From a virus (Duplodnaviria; Heunggongvirae; Uroviricota; Caudoviricetes), in the IMG/VR virus record IMGVR_UViG_3300029840_000054, positions 1-12,202 of that record: DNA of 12,202 nucleotides; one strand, 5' to 3'. Positions 1 through 12,202 of this stretch are shown here, piece by piece. The position numbers were made by a program, and so were the translations under genes. Each line of letters opens with the position of its first letter. Positions within the stretch are counted from its first letter, which is position 1. The notes under the pieces were generated by a model. It had not been told where the DNA came from and searched no databases. It was given only the letters and a program-made list of their open reading frames with translations.

Positions 1-1681
1 TTCCGGCACCGCCGACATAACCACCTTCCGCATAGCCCCGCATCAGGCGGTACAGATTGCCGACACCAATCCGGCTGGTCGCCTCCTTCGTGAAGACAAA
101 CTCCCCGCGATGAACAATCCCCGCAGGTTCATATTTACCCCCCGTCCCCGTAAATCCCCCGGTCGCGAAATGGAAGTTCGCCGCCGCAGCCTGAATGGCT
201 GTACCGCCTGACGCGGATGCGCCGCCACCAACAGCCCCGCCAATGGCGCTGCCGATACTCCCGACTATCCCCACCATCGCCTGCTTCAGAAAAATCTCTG
301 TCAGCATGGACAGCACAGAACGGGTGAAACCACGCCAGTTCTGTTCGCTGCCGGTCAGCATCGCTGCCATATTCTGTGCAATACCGTCAAAGGTCTGCGT
401 GGCCGCGTTTTTAACCTGCGAAAAACTGTCCGTCGCACTTTCCGCCCACTCGCCCCAGCCGGACTTCATCCCGGCCATCCAGCTTCCACGAAGCTGCTCC
501 TCCGCAGACCAGGTGTTCTTCAGTGCAGATGTGGCCTTCGCCAGCGCAACCGGATTATCACCGTACACCTCACGAAGGCGCTGCTCTTCCGACTCCCGCT
601 GCGCCTGACGGTCGGTGAGTCCGCGGGCTTTTGCGCTGATTGCCGCCTGCTTCGCGCTCTGCTGCTGTTCAAACCGCGCCGCCTGCTGTGCCAGCTCATT
701 CAGCCGTTTCTGGTGTTCAATCTTGTCGCCCAGCTCAGCCAGCTGGCGTTTGTACTCCAGCGTTTCTTTCTCATGGGCCAGCAGGGATTTTTCCTGCTCA
801 GATAACTGCCGTTTCGTGGCAGCCTCTTTCAGGACCGCATACTGACTTTCCGCCTTCCATAAATCACGGCGCTGCCGGCTGATTTTCTCATTCGCACCGC
901 TGTGTTTTTCCAGCGTCCTGAGCTCAGCTTCAAGGGCAAGCAGAGCCTCTCTTGCCTGCTCCTCTTCCCTCTCCCCGGCAGAGCGCGTTTTCGGTGATGT
1001 ATGCTTTTTACCTGTCAGCTCTTCAGCCAGACGGCTGACGGCTTCCTGCTGCCCAGGACCTTTGCTGACGCCTGTTGCACGCGAGCGGTTGATGTACCCC
1101 ATTTCCCCCTGGCGTATACGCGCATCCCGTTCCGCAATGGATTTTCTCAGCGCCAGTTCATCGCGTTTTGTTTTCTCAATAAATACGCGGTTCTCTTCTG
1201 CCAGTTCACCAAACAACGCACCAACGCCGGGCACATTCTTTGTCGTTTCCCAGGCTGACTGAATAAATTCAGCCAGCGCCAGATCCCCCTGCACAAGCAG
1301 CAGCTTCACCTGTTCAACGGTTCCGGCCACCACGTCAGTGATCAGACTGAGTGCCCCCAGTGTATGATCACCTATCCATGCCCATGCGTCAGAAGTCCAG
1401 GTTTTAACATCGTCCCAGATTTTTTCCACCGGCGTGGCCGCTTTATCAAGTTGCTCCAGACGTGCATTCATGACATCCGCAAACAGGGACATCGCCTCCG
1501 TCACCGCAGCCTGTTTACCTTTCGTGCGCTCAAGCTCATCAATATGGCGTAACTGGGAAACGCTCAGGAAGTTATACTGCTGATTCAGGGAGGCCAGCGC
1601 CTTCACCGGATCTGCTGCAATCCCTTCAAAGGCTTTTTCCACCTTCCCGGCATCGTCCCCCACCGTCTGCAGCCATCTCTG
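1..1681 (-). CDS. H: tail tape measure protein, C-proximal continuation (partial, runs off window at position 1; no start codon visible for this frame)
   Basis: Minus-strand translation is open from about 1681 to 1 and reads ...EALLALEAELRTLEKHSGANEKISRQRRDLWKAESQ...GTGGKYEPAGIVHRGEFVFTKEATSRIGVGNLYRLMRGY..., colinear with lambda gpH. Absent from the ORF track, presumably because it has no stop inside the window. Confidence 0.85.
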
Positions 1682-1691
1682 NNNNNNNNNN
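1682..1691. other. run of 10 ambiguous bases (N) at the tape-measure junction
   Basis: Literal n characters in the sequence. Confidence 1.
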
Positions 1692-1724
1692 TAAAGCCCT
1701 TGAACCTCTTCATAGCTCCTCCAA

Positions 1725-2459
1725 TTACTTTGACATTAGGATTTGTAGGTCTGCAGCGGTATATTTCCCGCTTTCTGCCAGACGGGCCAGATTTTCTGCC
1801 GCCTGTCTGATACCACCACCGGCTTCATCGCTGATCACCCCGGCCATTTTCCACAATTCTGCCGTTGTGGTGGCAGCCGCCCCTCCGGTCAGGATCAGTG
1901 AACGCAATAAGGCCCGGTCAGCCTGCTCTGCCTGCCAGGCGGCGGCAGCAAGCGCGGCCAGTACGGCAACCCCGCCACCTGCCGCCACACGGGCCACCGA
2001 CATAAATCGTCCCAGCTCACCGGCATTCCGGGCATTTTCAGCCAGTGCATTTGCCGTATCTGACAGCGACTCCTCTGATGATTCAGAGGCATCCCTGATC
2101 CCGAGAAGTTCCTCCTTCAGCAGGGTAAGCAGGCTGAGCGGTCCACCGAATGAATCGCTGATCTGCCCCCCCTGCTGCAGCATGATAAGGAAGGGATTCT
2201 GACCACCGGCAAGCTGAGTGACAATATCCGTGAACTGTGCGGGCAGTGTGCGCATGGCAGCCTTATACTGTCCGACTGATATCCCGGCTTTTTGTGCAGC
2301 CAGCGCCTGTCGGCTCAGCCCCTGTTCAACAGTACTGGCGGTTTTTCTGGCATCCGCCTCCAGACTGGAAAAATGACGGCGTACCCGGGCCATCTGTTCA
2401 TCAAACCGGGCCGCATCCAGACTCAAATCAATAACCAGATCACCCGCTGGCTGGGACAT
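1725..2459 (-). CDS. H: tail tape measure protein, N-terminal 244-aa fragment ending at an in-frame TAA
   Basis: Track ORF begins MSQPAGDLVIDLSLDAARFDEQMARVRRHFS...AGISVGQYKAAMRTLPAQFTD..., matching the lambda gpH N-terminus. SD-like GGAGGTG lies upstream of the ATG. Stop at 1725-1727. Confidence 0.85.
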   Translation of the reverse strand: MSQPAGDLVIDLSLDAARFDEQMARVRRHFSSLEADARKTASTVEQGLSRQALAAQKAGISVGQYKAAMRTLPAQFTDIVTQLAGGQNPFLIMLQQGGQISDSFGGPLSLLTLLKEELLGIRDASESSEESLSDTANALAENARNAGELGRFMSVARVAAGGGVAVLAALAAAAWQAEQADRALLRSLILTGGAAATTTAELWKMAGVISDEAGGGIRQAAENLARLAESGKYTAADLQILMSK

Positions 2460-2495
2460 ATCTCACACCTCCGGAAATCCCCGCTGAAGCCATCA

Positions 2496-2861
2496 TTAAT
2501 GCAACATCATCCTCGCTGACATCCACCACATCCGCAGAAGGTGAAATATCGCGCCCTCCGTCCCCTCCGAACCGGACGCCTCCGGCATCTCCGTCTGCTC
2601 TTCCTCACACGCTGGAGCAAGCAGACTGAAATCCGCCGGATGCATATCCGGATCGCCAAAAAACAGGCTGAGTACGGCGTACATCAGCCCGGAAAAATGA
2701 GCGTCCAGTTGGGTATCCTGAAAATAATGCGTGCAGTAAAAACGTCGCCAGTCGGCATATTCGGTGGATGTCATCCCGGCAAGCATGGCGCGCCAGTCGG
2801 GTCTCCCCATCTCTCGCGCCAGTTTCAGGACAAAGTTCAGCTCGCCTTCGAATGCTTTTTT
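2496..2861 (-). CDS. T: tail assembly chaperone, -1 frame portion of the G-T fusion (gpT part)
   Basis: Track ORF 2496..2810 (...TSTEYADWRRFYCTHYFQDTQLDAHFSGLMYAVLSLFFGDPDMHPADFSLL...) resembles lambda gpT and lies in the -1 frame relative to G. That frame is open back to the slippery heptamer at 2855-2861. Confidence 0.75.
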   Translation of the reverse strand, partial: KKAFEGELNFVLKLAREMGRPDWRAMLAGMTSTEYADWRRFYCTHYFQDTQLDAHFSGLMYAVLSLFFGDPDMHPADFSLLAPACEEEQTEMPEASGSEGTEGAIFHLLRMWWMSARMMLH

Positions 2862-3259
2862 GATGTTACCGGCTCAGTCGCTTCTGCTTTCCCGGTTTGT
2901 TCAGGATCGGCATCGTGCCGGTTATCCAGCATACCTGAAAGATAAAGCACCCGGTTCGTTGCCTGATTCAGTGCATCAGCAGGCCATCCCAGCATAACTT
3001 CACGGCGGATCTGCTGCATCTCTGTCTCCGGAGAGGCCAGAGTGCCTTTGAGGGAATGGGTATGCCATAGCGACATCGCCACAAGCAGGGATGCCGTTTC
3101 CAGATATCGCTGGTTAATGTGCACGACATCATGCTTCGTTGTCTCCTGTTGTTCTGCGTCTGAAACAAACTTTATATAATCAAACCGCTGCAGCGCAGAC
3201 AATTCGGAAAGCGTGACGGACACACCGTTATATTCAAATTGTTCTGTTTTCAGAAACAT
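2837..3259 (-). CDS. G: tail assembly chaperone gpG
   Basis: 140 aa, MFLKTEQFEYNGVSVTLSELSALQR..., same length as and colinear with lambda gpG. SD GGAGGT upstream. Confidence 0.9.
   Translation of the reverse strand: MFLKTEQFEYNGVSVTLSELSALQRFDYIKFVSDAEQQETTKHDVVHINQRYLETASLLVAMSLWHTHSLKGTLASPETEMQQIRREVMLGWPADALNQATNRVLYLSGMLDNRHDADPEQTGKAEATEPVTSKKHSKAS
2855..2861 (-). promoter_or_regulatory. candidate programmed -1 ribosomal frameshift heptamer A_AAA_AAG (G to G-T)
   Basis: In the G frame the codons are TCA AAA AAG (..TSKKHSKAS*). The preceding A gives the X_XXY_YYZ pattern, and the -1 frame from here runs without a stop into the T-like ORF. Confidence 0.6.
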
Positions 3260-3272
3260 GTATTACCTCCGT

Positions 3273-4025
3273 TTACCCTGCAGCGCCCGCTTCAGTAACG
3301 GTGACTTCAGCCACTGCGGCGAACTGACCATTTCCGCTCACCACAGGGATCTGCACCTTACCTGTCGCCACGCCGTTTACCGTAATTGTCATATCTTTCA
3401 CACTAATGGTGGCTTTCGACGGATCGGCGGAAACCGCTCTGAACGTCTTGTCGGTTGCACTTTCCGGCTCCAAAGAAACCGTCAGGGTGGTTGTTTTCCC
3501 TTTTGCCACCGTACCGGATGTCGGCGTCACCTTAATCGCACTGACCGGCGTAATTTTGCTGCGTTCTTCCGCTACAGAAGGTTTACCCACGTTAGTGACT
3601 TTCACCGTGCGGGTAATCACTTCTTTCGCCGTCACGGCCTTACCGATACTGCTGACCCAGCCACGAAACACATCCACCGTGCCATTCGGAAAACGGATTT
3701 TATAGGCCCGGACATCGCCGCTTTCAAACCAGCCTATAAGCCCTTTCTGGCCTTCCTCTCCCGGTTTCCAGGCCAGCGTAAAACTGGTATCACCTGCAGA
3801 TTTCTGCCCCTGCCCGGTCGCGCTCCAGTCCGCGTCTTCATCATCCAGGTAGTTATCATCGTAGGATTCAGCCGTCATCTCGCCCGGCGTCAGATCCTTC
3901 ACCTTAGCCAGTCGCTGCCAGTCATCGTCTGACAACGGGTTTGCATAAGCATCACCCTTGCCGTTGTAAACCCACAGAGTGGTACCGGCACCTTTTACCG
4001 GCTCAAGGGGATTTGGTGTTGCCAT
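3273..4025 (-). CDS. V: major tail tube protein gpV
   Basis: 250 aa; ...[50 protein letters not shown]... is near-identical to lambda gpV. Confidence 0.95.
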
Positions 4026-4032
4026 ATCGTCC

Positions 4033-4428
4033 TCACATCTCGTATGTAATGGAATAAGTCAGATCTGCAGAACTCCATAACGCCATATCGTCATCACGAC
4101 GATACTCATAGCCCTGCGTAACCATCGTGGTAATCAGTCCTGCCAGTGCCGGGATCTCGGTCATCGCCGGGTAAATCCGGCTTTCCATCCACTGATCAAG
4201 CTCTGAATCCGGTACCTGTGCCGGTAAAAACACCTCAATATGCAGCGTGGCCCGCCAGGTATCTGCATCCAGCTCTTCACCGGTATACTCTGCATCCGTC
4301 AGATAAACCGCGATCGCAGGAAAATCCTCTTCGTCAAAAACAACGGGGCGACCATCAAACAGCGTCGCCCCGTGTTCATGCTGCTCGAGTGCATCCAGCA
4401 CTGCGGCACGAATGTCAGTGTGTTTCAT
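4033..4428 (-). CDS. U: tail terminator protein gpU
   Basis: 131 aa, [28 protein letters not shown]...LTYSITYEM, colinear with lambda gpU (131 aa). Confidence 0.95.
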
Positions 4429-4958
4429 CGTTTTATTGCAATCCTCAGTTGTTGTTTCAGCGCGTATGCCAGTTCTTTAGGCAGGCGTTCACGCCGGATA
4501 CGGTCAACATTCTCATCAAATGCCTGTTTCAGTGGGGCCGCCATCGGGATTTTCACCACATCAATGGGGTAACGGTTTTTCCCGGCCACACGCTGCATGA
4601 CATGCCAGCGACCATTTTTTAATCGCTGAATAAATGCCCGCTGATACCGATGCTGACCGGCTTTAAGTATGCTGTTCGGGCGACGCCCCAGCATCCTGAT
4701 CCCCAGCTTANNNNNNNNNNNNNNNNCGCGGTTAACGATAATTCTGGCATTCGGATTTCTGACCGTCGCCCGTTTCAGTCTGGACCGTTCCTTTACCAGT
4801 TTCCGTCTCACCCTGGTTTCCCGGGCAACCTGTGACGAAGACTGATTAATCGCCGTTGTGGCCACGCGGTTAATGGTCATTGCAGAAGCAGCCGGAATGG
4901 CGTTTTTACGAACCCGGCTCAGATTGTCAATCGCCTGATCAAGCCCTTTTATCGCCAT
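4425..4958 (-). CDS. Z: tail completion protein gpZ (contains a 16-nt N run)
   Basis: MAIKGLDQAIDNLSRVRKNAIPAASAMTINRVA...NGRWHVMQRVAGKNRYPIDVVKIPMA... matches lambda gpZ. Start overlaps the U stop. Confidence 0.9.
   Translation of the reverse strand: MAIKGLDQAIDNLSRVRKNAIPAASAMTINRVATTAINQSSSQVARETRVRRKLVKERSRLKRATVRNPNARIIVNRXXXXXXKLGIRMLGRRPNSILKAGQHRYQRAFIQRLKNGRWHVMQRVAGKNRYPIDVVKIPMAAPLKQAFDENVDRIRRERLPKELAYALKQQLRIAIKR
4711..4726. other. run of 16 ambiguous bases (N) inside Z
   Basis: Literal n characters. The Z frame is preserved across the run (6 X codons). Confidence 1.
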
Positions 4959-4972
4959 AATTAACCCTGCGT

Positions 4973-5326
4973 TTATCGTCGCCGGTTAACTGCGGGTGGT
5001 TGCCCACGGTTGAGCCAGAGATAACAGCTACCCCCGTCATCCGGAGAAACACGATCCACCCAGAATGTCTCACCATTAATGGTCAGCGTGTCACCACGCC
5101 GCACGGCACGAACCGTATCCGTCCGCACAAATAATGACGGGCTGCTTCCTTCAATACGGACCCCGCTACCGGCAAACCCCAGCGACTCCGGATCGTCAAA
5201 AACCCCCTGAACTTCGCTGCCACACTGTGCCCCCGAGGTGAACTGCGCACAGAGCCCCATCACTTCAACAATCGTTCTGTCCACCCCGGCAAGGGCAGCA
5301 TCAAAGGAATTCTCAAAATCACGCAT
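4973..5326 (-). CDS. FII: head-tail joining protein gpFII
   Basis: 117 aa; ...GVFDDPE...GVRIEGSSPSLFVRTD.VR..RRGDTL...FWVDRVSPDDGGSC.LWL.RG.PPAVNRRR is near-identical to lambda gpFII. Confidence 0.95.
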   Translation of the reverse strand: MRDFENSFDAALAGVDRTIVEVMGLCAQFTSGAQCGSEVQGVFDDPESLGFAGSGVRIEGSSPSLFVRTDTVRAVRRGDTLTINGETFWVDRVSPDDGGSCYLWLNRGQPPAVNRRR

Positions 5327-5683
5327 AAACGGCCATTCCGCTCCTGACCATGTCTTTTGCCACTGAGGGGGGCATCAGAATTACTCTGCCAGCATCAACA
5401 TGCTCAACAGGCTCACCTGTTTCATCGTCAACACCGCACAGGTAAAAACACTTCAGAAGCCTGATACGTTCCAGAATACCAACGTCATCCTCACCGGTGT
5501 GCCTGCATGCCTGCTCATGAACGGTATCATCAACATCTGCGATTTCATTTTCCGAGGCGCAAACCTCCTCTTCCCACTCTGCCACACGCTGTGCGATATC
5601 CGCAGCACCGACATATCCGCCTCGCGCCCCAGCAGACCAGCCAGTTCACGAAGACGTTTCTGATTTTCTTCTTTTGTTGCCAT
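5319..5683 (-). pseudogene. FI: DNA-packaging/head assembly protein gpFI-like, split across two reading frames
   Basis: An SD-preceded ATG at 5681-5683 (AGGGAG, 6-nt spacer) starts MATKEENQKRLRELAGLLGREADMS, like the lambda FI N-terminus. The rest of the FI-like sequence (..IAQRVAEWEEE...EPVEHVDAGRVILMPPSVAKDMVRSGMAVYA) is in the other track ORF (5319..5585), a different frame. Confidence 0.6.
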
Positions 5684-7204: not shown

Positions 7205-7807
7205 TCATGGCATGGCCATGAGCATTTTCACGTCCGCATCACCGTCTGCCGACGTCTGTGACACGCCACCCTGCACGGCTGCCGGTGAATGGTTCGCCAT
7301 GATGCGTTCAAACATGGCGGTTGTGGATGCAGAAACCGGTTCTGCTTTATCCGGCGATGAGGAGAGAATGTCGCGGGCAGCCTCCACCGTCATTCCGGGA
7401 AACGCCGCCAGTTTTTCAGCCTGCGCCTCAGCCCCTTTTGCCTCATCCAGAGCCATAATCTGATCACGGAGTGAGGGTCCGGCATCCGCCTGCGGTGAAG
7501 CCGCCAGGATCGGGCGGGCTTTTTCCACCGTCATATCCGGCATCGCCGCCAGCGTTGCCGCCAGTTGTTCACGACCTTTAGCCTCTTCACACGCCATAAT
7601 GCGATCGGCTTCACTCTGCGTGGATGCCACCGGCTGCTGTGGTGCTGCCGCGGTCAGAATCGCCCGGGCCTGTTCAACGCTCATGCCCTGTTGTCCTGCC
7701 AGCATCGTGGCAAGCTGTTCACGTCCCTTCGCTTCCTGACACGTCAGGATCCCCATCACTCGCTGGTTCTCCTGCGCGGCAGCTTCCGTTGCAGTTAATT
7801 GCGGCAT
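7205..7807 (-). CDS. nu3: nested in-frame scaffolding protein (Nu3-like), C-terminal 200 aa of C
   Basis: Internal ATG at 7805-7807 (M302 of C, MPQLTAT...) is preceded by a perfect AGGAGG SD, 4-nt spacer, encoded within C codons. Lambda nu3 is likewise the in-frame C-terminal ~200 aa of C. Confidence 0.65.
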   Translation of the reverse strand: MPQLTATEAAAQENQRVMGILTCQEAKGREQLATMLAGQQGMSVEQARAILTAAAPQQPVASTQSEADRIMACEEAKGREQLAATLAAMPDMTVEKARPILAASPQADAGPSLRDQIMALDEAKGAEAQAEKLAAFPGMTVEAARDILSSSPDKAEPVSASTTAMFERIMANHSPAAVQGGVSQTSADGDADVKMLMAMP

Positions 7808-8710: not shown

Positions 8711-10292
8711 GTGGTGTTGTCTCCTCTTCCGGCCTGCGACTCTCCGCTATCTGCTGCTGATACGCCTGCGCTATCCAAACCGGACGTGAGAGTCCGGCTT
8801 TTTCCCGCTCTGCAGATTCCCTGACCTGCTGGCGGAAAATGTCCTGATAATCCTCGCCCATCAGCGCCAGCTCTTTCTCATACGTGCTCAGTCCGGCCTC
8901 AATGCGCATCACTGATTCCTGAACCTCCTTGAGCCCGTCAATGGCCATTCTTCCGGCTCCAATCCACTCAGCCCGTGACCAGGCTGATCGCGCCTGATAA
9001 AAATCAAAACGTGCCCGTGGCGGACGAATAATCCCCCGAAGAAGTGCCTCTTCCAGCCAGCAGGAAAACATCTGCGTGGCCAGCCGGGACGCAATAAATT
9101 TTCGCCGCCCCATAAAATAGCGCCACGACTCATTGGCGGATGCGCGGGCACTTGAATAACTGACCTTCGAGTAATCACGGGACAACTGTTCGTAGGAAAC
9201 GCCAAGACCGGCGGCGATATACCGCAGCAGCGCCTGTTCAAGCGCCGAAAATCCATTGTCTGAATCCTGCGCGGTCTGAAGTTTCAGATCATCACCGGGG
9301 AAAAGGTGCGGAATTTTGACACCGCCCAGCGTCACGCTATTCGTGTCATACCAGGTGGAGAACTTATCCAGAATATTAATAAGCGGATTATCCTTCTGCC
9401 CCTGCGGCGCACCGGCGATATATTCAAAGGCCTTTTCGGTATCAAGTTCACTTTCAATCGTCGCTGCATACATCGCCTTCACTATGGCCGACTGAAGCTG
9501 TGTTGCCTGCAGGGAATCGAGCATCTTCAGCCGTTCCATGACGCTGTAAAACTGATTAGCCCCACGGGTCTGCCCGTCCTCCACCGGCTCGAAAATATGC
9601 AGCATGGCCGGACGTCCGGTGGGAAGTTCACGCGGGATCCGTTCCCATCGTCCACTACCAGAGAACGGAAAATCATCCTCACAAATATGGTACGCGACGG
9701 CACGGCCATATCGATCGACCTCCACACCGGCCCGCAGAAAACGGTTCCCCATACCGTGTCCAGGCGTGTCCACCCGTTTCGGACTCACGGCTTTAAAACG
9801 CGTACGGAATAACTGCGTGGTTTCCGTATCCCAGACCGGCTGCACAAAGATTTCGCCGTTAAACGCATGAACGCCCACACCTTCACGGATAAATTCCGTG
9901 AACGTGCGTTTTCCTTCCACGTCGATCTCGCCAAACATCCCTTCGGCGTATTCCGACCAGGCCGCCTCCACCTCATCGACAAAGCTTTTTGCTGCGGTCT
10001 CCCGCATCCCCAGCCAGCGCCAGTTCGGACGGTAGCTGATCAGAAACATATGCCCGACAATGTGATCCTTATGCAGAGCCACCGCATTAGCCGCTATTCC
10101 GTTATNNNNNNNNNNNNNNNNTGCCCGGGCATTCCCCAGACGCAACGCGGGTAACAGGGCCGCATCGGCACTCTGCGCCGGTGGCAACCACTCAGCCATT
10201 TGCCCGCCAAATCCTGCACCGCCCCCGTTGTAGCTGAGACTCTCACGAAGCGGAACGCCGTTCACATCAATCAGGACAGGCGTTCGTTTCAT
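8700..10292 (-). CDS. B: portal protein gpB (contains a 16-nt N run)
   Basis: 530 aa; ...LHIFEPVEDGQTRGANQFYSVMERLKMLDSLQATQLQSAIVKAMYAATIESELDT...LRYIAAGLGVSYEQLSRDYS...GRMAIDGLKEVQESVMRIEAGLSTYEKE is colinear with lambda gpB (533 aa). Confidence 0.95.
   Translation of the reverse strand: MKRTPVLIDVNGVPLRESLSYNGGGAGFGGQMAEWLPPAQSADAALLPALRLGNARAXXXXXXNGIAANAVALHKDHIVGHMFLISYRPNWRWLGMRETAAKSFVDEVEAAWSEYAEGMFGEIDVEGKRTFTEFIREGVGVHAFNGEIFVQPVWDTETTQLFRTRFKAVSPKRVDTPGHGMGNRFLRAGVEVDRYGRAVAYHICEDDFPFSGSGRWERIPRELPTGRPAMLHIFEPVEDGQTRGANQFYSVMERLKMLDSLQATQLQSAIVKAMYAATIESELDTEKAFEYIAGAPQGQKDNPLINILDKFSTWYDTNSVTLGGVKIPHLFPGDDLKLQTAQDSDNGFSALEQALLRYIAAGLGVSYEQLSRDYSKVSYSSARASANESWRYFMGRRKFIASRLATQMFSCWLEEALLRGIIRPPRARFDFYQARSAWSRAEWIGAGRMAIDGLKEVQESVMRIEAGLSTYEKELALMGEDYQDIFRQQVRESAEREKAGLSRPVWIAQAYQQQIAESRRPEEETTPRET
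10106..10121. other. run of 16 ambiguous bases (N) inside the portal gene
   Basis: Literal n characters. The B frame is preserved across the run (6 X codons). Confidence 1.
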
Positions 10293-10495
10293 AACCTCAC
10301 TCCCAGCGGACGACGGCGACGCCGGGTTGTCCCCAGTACCGACTCCGCATCATTGATCGCCCGGTTAAGCTCATCCAGAGAAGCCGCCGTATATTCAATT
10401 CTGCGACCATCTTTCTGGACAGACACCACCCGTTTACCGGTTAATAAATCAAGGCGCGCCTGACGCAGCGCCTGCAGTTCAGCGACTGTAACCAT
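10289..10495 (-). CDS. W: head-tail connector / head completion protein gpW
   Basis: 68 aa; ...A.LDLLTGKRVVSVQKDGRRIEYTAASLDELNRAI...RRRRP is colinear with lambda gpW (68 aa). Overlaps the B start and A stop as in lambda. Confidence 0.9.
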   Translation of the reverse strand: MVTVAELQALRQARLDLLTGKRVVSVQKDGRRIEYTAASLDELNRAINDAESVLGTTRRRRRPLGVRL

Positions 10496-12155
10496 TCACT
10501 CCTCCGGACAGCTTCGCTGCCAGTTCTTTAAGGGTTGGCCGGGTCGTCTCTTCTTCCCGGGATTTTGCCAGTACAGCCAGATCAAGCTGCCAGCGTTGCA
10601 CGGACACACGTAATGCCGCGTAGGCATACACCAGGCAGTCCAGCGCTTCGTTACGCCGCTTTTTGTTATCCCACAGCAGACGCATCTTTCCTTTTTCCCA
10701 CTTCTCCACAAGCTCTTCCGCGACCAGTTGCTGCGCCTCTGTCTGCGAAAAAATCTCCGGATCATCAGGAAAACGGATGGCATACGACGTGGCTTCATCC
10801 GCAGGCGTGGGATCGGCTTTCATACGGGCATAGAGAATTTCTTTTGCGGTGTCCGTCCCCACTTCGCACAGATACACGCCCCGCTGATTGCGGGTTTTTG
10901 GCATGGTGATCACCGGCTTGCCATAAACAGATGCACCTTTTACCGGCAGCACCCGGAAAACACCGTGTTTTTTTGACCTCTGATAGACAATTTCGCCATC
11001 GATCCCTCCGGTGTCCCAGCAGACACGGGAAATGGTCATTTCGGTTCCGTCTGCATGGCGGTATTTTTTGTTGATCGCCACATCCACACGTAACAGCGTC
11101 TCTTCCTCATCGGGACGCCCCATAATGATGATTTTATCCACCAGAAAGGCTTCCTCTCCCGGAGCCCATCCCCAGACATACATCTCAAAACGGTTTCGCT
11201 GCGAGTCAATGCCCGCCGTCAGATAAACCACCCGGGAAGGCACCGCAGCCGTGTAACGCACAACCTTATCCATCAGCACCTGGTGATCGAGTTTTTCGCC
11301 CACGGCCTCTTCCCAGGTCTCGCCCAGCGTGGTGTTCACAAAGGTTTTCAGGCCGTTGGGATCTTTCAGTGCATCCAGCCAGTCATAGACAATCTGTACC
11401 CAGGTGGTGAACGGACTGTACGCCGTCCAGATATGGAATGTGATGGAGCGCGGCGGCGGAATTTCATTACCCGCAGCGCTGAAAAACGTCAGGCCGTCAC
11501 GGGTCCACATGCCCGTGTTTTCACAGATCCACCGCCCGTTGCTCTGGTCAAGATCAGACTGATGGATCACGCAGCCATGATGTTCACAGAGGTAGAAAAC
11601 ACTTTCTGGACTGTCCTTCTCCCATTTAAGGCCAAAAGGCGTGGACTCATCGCCAAATTTCAGATACTGCGCCTCCCCACAGTGTGGGCAGGGCACATAA
11701 AAACGCATGAAATGCGCCGACTCGTTGGCCGCTTTTTCGATCTGGCAGGAGCCTTTTATTTTAGGCGTCGAGCCGCGAATGGATTTTGGCCATACCGAGC
11801 CCTCAATACGCTTATCCCCCAGCAGGGTTGGCGAGCCCTCTTTTTCGACATCCGGCTCGAACGAGGAAAGTTCGTCATAGCAGACCACGTCCACGGATTT
11901 TTCACGGTAGTTTTTGGCGGCAGCACCACCCAGGCACCAGAACCCCACACGGGACGTGAATCTTTTTAATGTCAGTGTGTTATCCCGGTGCTTACGCCCC
12001 AGCCAGGGGGAAAGAATTTTCAGACAGGGAACATCCCGTAATGTTGACTCCACATGAGACTTCATAAAATCTTCAGCGGCAGAATCCGTAGGCTGAAACA
12101 GAAGACTGTTACGGTTTTTATGCTCAATAAAGTAACCAATAAGTAACCGGCTCAT
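10479..12155 (-). CDS. A: terminase large subunit (gpA-like); ORF corresponds to lambda gpA from about residue 85 onward, with an in-frame stop immediately upstream of the ATG
   Basis: 558 aa; ...YFIEHKNRNSLLFQPTDSAAEDFMKSHVE...WCLGGAAAKNYREKSVDVVCYDELSSF...IWTAYSPFTTWVQIV...NTTLGETWE...TAGIDSQ...GTDTAKE...KKRRNEALDC... is colinear with lambda gpA (641 aa). Confidence 0.9.
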   Translation of the reverse strand: MSRLLIGYFIEHKNRNSLLFQPTDSAAEDFMKSHVESTLRDVPCLKILSPWLGRKHRDNTLTLKRFTSRVGFWCLGGAAAKNYREKSVDVVCYDELSSFEPDVEKEGSPTLLGDKRIEGSVWPKSIRGSTPKIKGSCQIEKAANESAHFMRFYVPCPHCGEAQYLKFGDESTPFGLKWEKDSPESVFYLCEHHGCVIHQSDLDQSNGRWICENTGMWTRDGLTFFSAAGNEIPPPRSITFHIWTAYSPFTTWVQIVYDWLDALKDPNGLKTFVNTTLGETWEEAVGEKLDHQVLMDKVVRYTAAVPSRVVYLTAGIDSQRNRFEMYVWGWAPGEEAFLVDKIIIMGRPDEEETLLRVDVAINKKYRHADGTEMTISRVCWDTGGIDGEIVYQRSKKHGVFRVLPVKGASVYGKPVITMPKTRNQRGVYLCEVGTDTAKEILYARMKADPTPADEATSYAIRFPDDPEIFSQTEAQQLVAEELVEKWEKGKMRLLWDNKKRRNEALDCLVYAYAALRVSVQRWQLDLAVLAKSREEETTRPTLKELAAKLSGGVNGYSR

Positions 12156-12202
12156 TTAAACCGTCTGGTCTGTTTCCTCCGGCTCTACAAAAATAATGTC
12201 CA

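Follow-up and report, generated by a model that had tools for sequence, protein, structure and literature searches.

Is the terminase large subunit (TerL) at one end of this lambda-like sequence, whose apparent start codon directly follows a stop codon and which has no counterpart to the N-terminal part of lambda gpA, a naturally short or divided enzyme, or is it what remains of an ordinary gene? In the window (the whole 12,202-nt stretch of DNA that was analysed), the protein is encoded by a 558-aa open reading frame (ORF) on the minus strand (12155..10479) with the first residues MSRLLIGYFIEHK, and the initial annotation regarded it as truncated, split into two polypeptides or joined to a different upstream module. 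We found the gene to be both truncated and split, and the cause, which that annotation had missed, to lie in the 60 nt upstream of 12142, which are the end of the insertion sequence (IS) ISCro1. Almost certainly, a simple insertion of ISCro1 interrupted the TerL gene of a lambdoid Escherichia coli prophage with a phage-21-like head module, which is most likely packaging-defective. The features on which this reading is based are listed in Table 1.

Alignment of the ORF with lambda gpA (NC_001416 711-2636; 66% identity over the aligned length) placed its M1 at lambda M85 and YFIEHK at lambda residues 92-97, in agreement with the match at about residues 84-97 that had been proposed initially, and left the ORF without about 84-88 N-terminal residues. 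The absent part includes the Walker A motif or P-loop (lambda 76-KSARVGYS-83; described as KSA-R79-VGYS in PMC6379665, Table 1), and in the relatives L003 and L009 the corresponding KSARVGYT ends before the position at which the terminase-derived residues of the window begin. The ORF matched the Pfam profile GpA_ATPase (PF05876) from position 47 to 247 of 247, as against 3-247 for an intact 642-aa relative; by an end-to-end match, a complete N-terminal ATPase domain is absent from the window ORF, and the loss of some 85 N-terminal residues together with the P-loop, as first annotated, is borne out by both comparisons. The N-terminal segment of lambda gpA is the region that binds the small subunit, gpNu1. 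Like lambda gpA and phage 21 gp2, the remnant keeps the Walker B and catalytic Glu segment (VDVVCYDE, ORF residues 88-95, aligned with lambda VDVAGYDE, VAGYD-E179), the C-terminal endonuclease domain (GpA_nuclease, PF20454; E = 3.8e-71, profile positions 3-286 of 294) and the C-terminus, and the genes that follow it stand in lambda order, with homologues of W, portal, S49 protease, D-like decoration protein, E major capsid, FI, FII, Z, U, V, G, T and H tape measure; at the DNA level the remnant is ~90% identical to phage 21 gene 2. It differs from lambda gpA in being without residues 1-88, the coding sequence of which was located on the far side of the IS, and in its first five residues, which are not terminase sequence.

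The point at which terminase sequence ends was determined by megablast, using window positions 11200-12202 as the query against 5,426 complete E. coli genomes and a phage collection. Window 11200-12142 showed 100% nucleotide identity with intact 642-codon terminase genes in eight complete E. coli genomes and in phage PhiR5_1, the matches beginning sharply at query position 61 (window 12142; query 61-1003). In the full-length gpA-family alignment that had been suggested as a check, ORF residues 6-558 were identical to residues 90-642 of the intact 642-aa proteins of STEC17-183 and PhiR5_1. Since the remnant has so far kept 100% identity to intact genes, the insertion appears to be evolutionarily recent. 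The in-frame continuation through a sequencing error that the initial annotation had allowed for was not seen, and a sequencing frameshift was likewise rejected: identity to the terminase genes stops abruptly at the IS tip, with no shift of frame.

The remaining 60 nt (window 12143-12202) are 100% identical to the annotated ISCro1 end of E. coli APEC IMT5155 (L001 4001-4060), where query positions 1-60 adjoin a gene for 'IS66-like element accessory protein TnpA', with tnpB and the gene for 'IS66-like element ISCro1 family transposase' coming next, and are also 100% identical to a stretch of the Stx-type phage PPwrbA_EC3734 (L002). The three contexts have the 60 nt in common up to ...CCGGTTAC / GGTTTAAATGAGCCGGTTAC, and because the sequences that come next bear no relation to one another (window, TTATTGGTTAC...; IMT5155, GGTACTTCTCG...; phage, GATTTTAGCG...), the end of the match marks the tip of a mobile element. 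A sibling contig with the same junction (L006) extends 126 nt into the IS at 100% identity to ISCro1 and encodes MSIIFNGHYRMKHRTWITEALRLH, the same as the start of TnpA WP_001339397.1 (translated from L001); the plus-strand ATG at 12196 is the tnpA start, 54 nt from the IS tip.

Read on the minus strand, window 12202..12120 is tg GAC ATT ATT TTT GTA GAG CCG GAG GAA ACA GAC CAG ACG GTT TAA ATG AGC CGG TTA CTT ATT GGT TAC TTT ATT GAG CAT AAA, in which the TAA (12158-12156) adjoins the ORF ATG and the in-frame reading 5' of the ATG is ...DIIFVEPEETDQTV*, followed by MSRLLIGYFIEHK. The stop codon directly before the ATG had thus been read correctly, but it is a constant part of the ISCro1 end. On the plus strand the left end of the IS begins at 12143, so that the IS supplies the TAA, the ATG and the next 10 nt (AGC CGG TTA C), and with them MSRL and the C of codon 5 of the ORF; the TT of codon 5 comes from the terminase. 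Every ISCro1 end examined (the window, L001, L002 and L004-L007) contained GGTTTAAATGAGCCGGTTAC, with the TAA-ATG adjacency invariant, and the apparent start codon is an accident of insertion. An upstream ORF ending in ...EPEETDQTV had been put forward as a possible small terminase subunit or missing N-terminal domain; this candidate, as the C-terminus of either or of any other upstream module, was rejected, the peptide being the antisense of the ISCro1 leader before tnpA and the real Nu1 lying beyond the IS.

Table 1. Features at the interrupted terminase gene (positions in the window)
Feature	Position	Strand	Remarks
Left end of IS66-family ISCro1	12143..12202	+	terminal inverted repeat from 12143, GTAACCGGCTCATTTAAACCGTCTGG, then leader
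Start of IS accessory gene tnpA	12196..12202	+	7 nt, ATGTCCA (M-S-); continued in L006 as MSIIFNGHYRMKHRTWITEALRLH
One copy of the 8-bp target-site duplication, TTATTGGT	12135..12142	-	directly abuts the IS end
3' part of lambda/phage-21-type TerL gene	10479..12142	-	codon 89 positions 2-3 to codon 642, plus stop
Chimeric 558-aa ORF	10479..12155	-	ATG and following nucleotides, 13 nt in all, from the IS; in-frame fusion to the remnant
TAA before the ATG	12156..12158	-	belongs to the IS terminal sequence; no gene end

The reference copy of ISCro1 in IMT5155 (NZ_CP005930.1, L001, locus 1362-4060) is 2,699 bp long and carries the set of tnpA, tnpB and 'ISCro1 family transposase' (DDE_Tnp_IS66). 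Its terminal repeats are imperfect (GTAACCGG.../GTAAGCGA...), and an 8-bp direct duplication, GGTACTTC, stands on either side of it. Both ends of the element begin with GTAA, the left one as GTAACCGGCTCATTTAAACCGT... (window 12143 onwards) and the right one as GTAAGCGACTCGTCAGAACCGT... (L001 from 1362, and the left-junction contigs L010-L018). A target duplication of 8 bp is typical of the IS66 family and usual for ISCro1. This element was first named in Citrobacter rodentium ICC168; an expansion in C. rodentium has brought it to 24 copies (PMC3072379), and in E. coli it inserts into loci and alters their expression, as in the afa regulatory region of ST131, where the copy measures 2,824 bp as against the 2,699 bp of the reference copy used here (PMC8764528). 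ISCro1-like ends were present in about 1,660 of the 5,426 complete E. coli genomes, at up to 25 places per genome. At the terminase site, where the contigs break inside the IS, the visible IS genes comprise the first 24 tnpA codons (L006) and the last 40 transposase codons (L016, PF13817). The parts visible here, which are the ends only, show nothing unusual: the last 60 nt of the window and up to 126 or 154 nt in sibling contigs are identical or nearly so to the ends of the IMT5155 copy, with GTAA-initiated imperfect repeats, tnpA 54 nt from the tip and an 8-bp duplication. The copy at this IMT5155 locus, like that in related avian E. coli genomes, is distinct from the terminase insertion and lies ~180 bp upstream of Nu1 of a related prophage, in or near the cos/late-leader region; it links ISCro1 a second time, and independently, to the packaging end of a lambdoid prophage.

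In L003 the uninterrupted gene has the sequence ...ATG CTG ATG GGC GTT ATT GGT TAC TTT..., that is, ...GGGCG TTATTGGT TACTTT (uninterrupted site, …GGGCGTTATTGGTTACTTT…), and the window junction, which is the right junction, reads CCGGTTAC|TTATTGGTTAC. From an 8-bp duplication the other junction was predicted beforehand as GGGCGTTATTGGT|GTAAGCGACTCG..., a sequence in which VSDSSEPY and a stop codon come after the first 91 residues of the terminase. The predicted 99-aa protein (P0001; NCBI GCG06637.1, 'phage terminase large subunit [Escherichia coli]') was retrieved by exact-sequence look-up in a set of about 15 billion proteins, with 17 contigs in the look-up record. A 91-aa stub (P0002) was also found, corresponding either to the product of a 7-bp duplication or to a contig-end partial of the 8-bp product, and the 126- and 127-aa products expected from a 6- or 9-bp duplication were not found in the same look-up. 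The duplication is fixed at 8 bp by the junction as read in the left-junction contigs (GGGCGTTATTGGT|GTAAGCGACTCG in L010-L018), with TTATTGGT on both sides of the IS.

P0001 is encoded on at least 23 contigs, each with an intact 182-aa Nu1 gene that overlaps the start of the stub; Nu1 and the 91 missing codons are therefore intact on the other side of the IS. These contigs run on for 29-154 nt into the right end of ISCro1 and are identical to the reference except for one mismatch in L010, and the one from an E. coli draft isolate genome (L016, GCA_005397825.1) also encodes, on the other strand, the C-terminal end of the IS66 transposase. Four human-gut metagenome contigs from ENA (L004-L007) contain the window junction and break off 53-126 nt into the IS; these and the P0001 contigs came from the ENA/Logan/NCBI gene index. 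Exact searches for the window junction gave zero matches in one-genome-per-species contigs, IMG/VR viral contigs and JGI metagenome contigs, the predicted reciprocal junction had zero matches in JGI metagenomes, and either junction occurred in 0 of the 5,426 complete E. coli genomes. Both junctions were present in three of the four samples carrying the window junction, namely ERZ918389 (window junction in L006, reciprocal junction in L010), ERZ28659820 (L004 and L012) and ERZ827480 (L005 at 4.2x and L015 at 4.8x coverage). The window and its sibling contigs end inside the IS because short-read assemblies break at a multi-copy repeat. Taken together, the two halves of the gene, the two IS ends in the expected orientation and the 8-bp duplication point to one simple transposition event, and we infer that the junctions enclose one complete copy of the IS.

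In this event, ISCro1 transposed into codons 89-91, just after Walker A (KSARVGYT), duplicating the 8-bp target TTATTGGT. The 5' side of the IS carries Nu1 and a 99-codon stub, made up of 91 terminase codons (including KSARVGYT at 77-84) and 8 codons from the right IS end, and the 3' side carries the window piece, so that residues 1-91 now stand apart from residues 89/90-642. That the window piece resembles a complete ORF is due only to the left IS end (...TAA ATG AGC CGG TTA C), which happens to be in frame. Because the remnant is without the P-loop and without the region that binds the small subunit in lambda gpA, neither piece should be able to power packaging, and for this reason the prophage is most likely packaging-defective, as judged from lambda genetics.

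Could the two pieces instead form a working enzyme, with the P-loop and TerS-binding module and the rest of TerL made as separate polypeptides? Both do persist as ORFs (99 and 558 aa), and the downstream remnant has gained no further mutation relative to intact genes. However, what lies at the break is no gene boundary but the end of a transposable element, accompanied by a target-site duplication; the pieces are separated by ~2.7 kb of antisense-oriented IS, and the cut falls 5-7 residues after Walker A, inside an ATPase domain that is continuous by Pfam in the intact protein. Furthermore, the 642-codon gene is uninterrupted in relatives that match the remnant exactly, the sequenced phage PhiR5_1 among them, and the chimeric ATG is without a suitably spaced ribosome-binding site, which makes a naturally short or two-piece terminase extremely unlikely.

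A chimeric join of IS and terminase made during assembly or scaffolding, with the real gene intact, has a probability close to nil. The window is indeed a scaffold with three N-runs and local anomalies beside them, and it ends in a multi-copy repeat, but the same junction was found in four independent assemblies (L004-L007) whose contig names point to different assemblers, and the reciprocal junction, with its matching 8-bp duplication, in at least 23 contigs including that of an isolate draft genome; a target-site duplication could not be created by a chimeric join, and the reciprocal junction had been predicted before it was found. It is also very unlikely that the insertion was followed by an IS-mediated rearrangement, in which Nu1 and the 5' stub were moved off by recombination or a larger composite element was formed. 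Recombination partners exist, given the frequency of ISCro1-like ends in E. coli genomes, and no contig bridges the IS; against this, the two junctions occur together in three of four samples, at similar coverage in the one sample for which coverage is given, and one simple insertion would give both the duplication and the arrangement of the ends, with the right IS end at the left junction and the left end at the right one; nothing suggests rearrangement.

With simple insertion of ISCro1 as the preferred explanation, the status of the 558-aa ORF was considered. Reading of the sequence before the chimeric ATG revealed no Shine-Dalgarno sequence at a suitable distance, the only GGAGG ending 21 nt upstream. 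Over the last 760 nt of the reference IS, a consensus scan detected no sigma-70-like promoter inside the IS on the strand reading out of its end; the scan gave a single match, outside the IS, a count equal to the shuffle expectation. Since there is neither a properly spaced Shine-Dalgarno sequence nor a promoter reading out of the IS end, we regard the ORF as probably an accidental chimeric frame over a pseudogene. One might imagine that the IS-borne ATG supports low-level synthesis of a TerL without the P-loop and TerS-binding region, yet with the nuclease and portal-binding parts, which would act as a dominant negative on packaging by superinfecting lambdoid phages; this is exceedingly improbable, although, if true, it would explain both the mutation-free remnant and the recurrence of the allele in many samples.

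Other irregularities of the window were recorded along its length. Three N-runs lie inside genes, at 1682-1691 (10 nt, tape-measure gene), 4711-4726 (16 nt, Z-like gene) and 10106-10121 (16 nt, portal gene), and because of them the window has to be treated as a gapped scaffold whose small local differences from relatives need caution. At 5608/5609, 4 nt (GGGA) are absent in comparison with L004-L006 and the intact prophage of O104:H4 2009EL-2071; the loss shifts the frame of the minus-strand FI-like gene (about 5312-5683), so that the DNA-packaging protein FI of 122 aa in relatives is replaced by overlapping ORFs of 92 and 88 aa. Either the decaying prophage has a second, real lesion here, or the assembly is in error. 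In gene T (minus strand, 2496-2810), ~43 nt are missing at about 2590-2600, between two GCCGGA direct repeats, relative to L004 and the O104:H4 prophage, which frameshifts the ORF of tail assembly protein T and reduces it from 137 to 104 aa. Beside the first N-run, 64 nt (1692-1755) that align to no relative's tape-measure gene stand in place of 31 nt of that gene and contain a stop at 1725-1727; they look like a scaffolding artefact or a foreign read end. In L004 (ERZ28659820), gene calling divided the Z-like minor tail gene at 7245-7788 into two ORFs of 81 and 89 aa, and no Pfam match is on record for the portal protein, of 531 aa; these small differences in the Z-like and portal genes coincide with the places of N-runs in the window.

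Disruption of prophage late genes by insertion sequences is a textbook route to cryptic prophages and a classic first step of their decay. As in other IS-inactivated lambdoid prophages of E. coli, a transposable element here sits in an essential late gene of an otherwise lambda-like prophage; this is an IS-disrupted prophage gene of a kind already known and not a novel terminase architecture. The particular allele, with ISCro1 at TerL codons 89-91, differs in its occurrence, having been found in draft genomes and metagenomes and in none of the 5,426 complete E. coli genomes, and its recurrence there is of epidemiological interest at most. For annotation, the ORF should be labelled an IS-disrupted pseudogene and not a short or split terminase of a new type, and the prophage is best recorded as probably defective. 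More generally, the ends of metagenome contigs often lie inside insertion sequences, which calls for caution in genome scanning, and IS termini can supply both a stop and a start codon, such that a truncated gene mimics a complete ORF of odd architecture.
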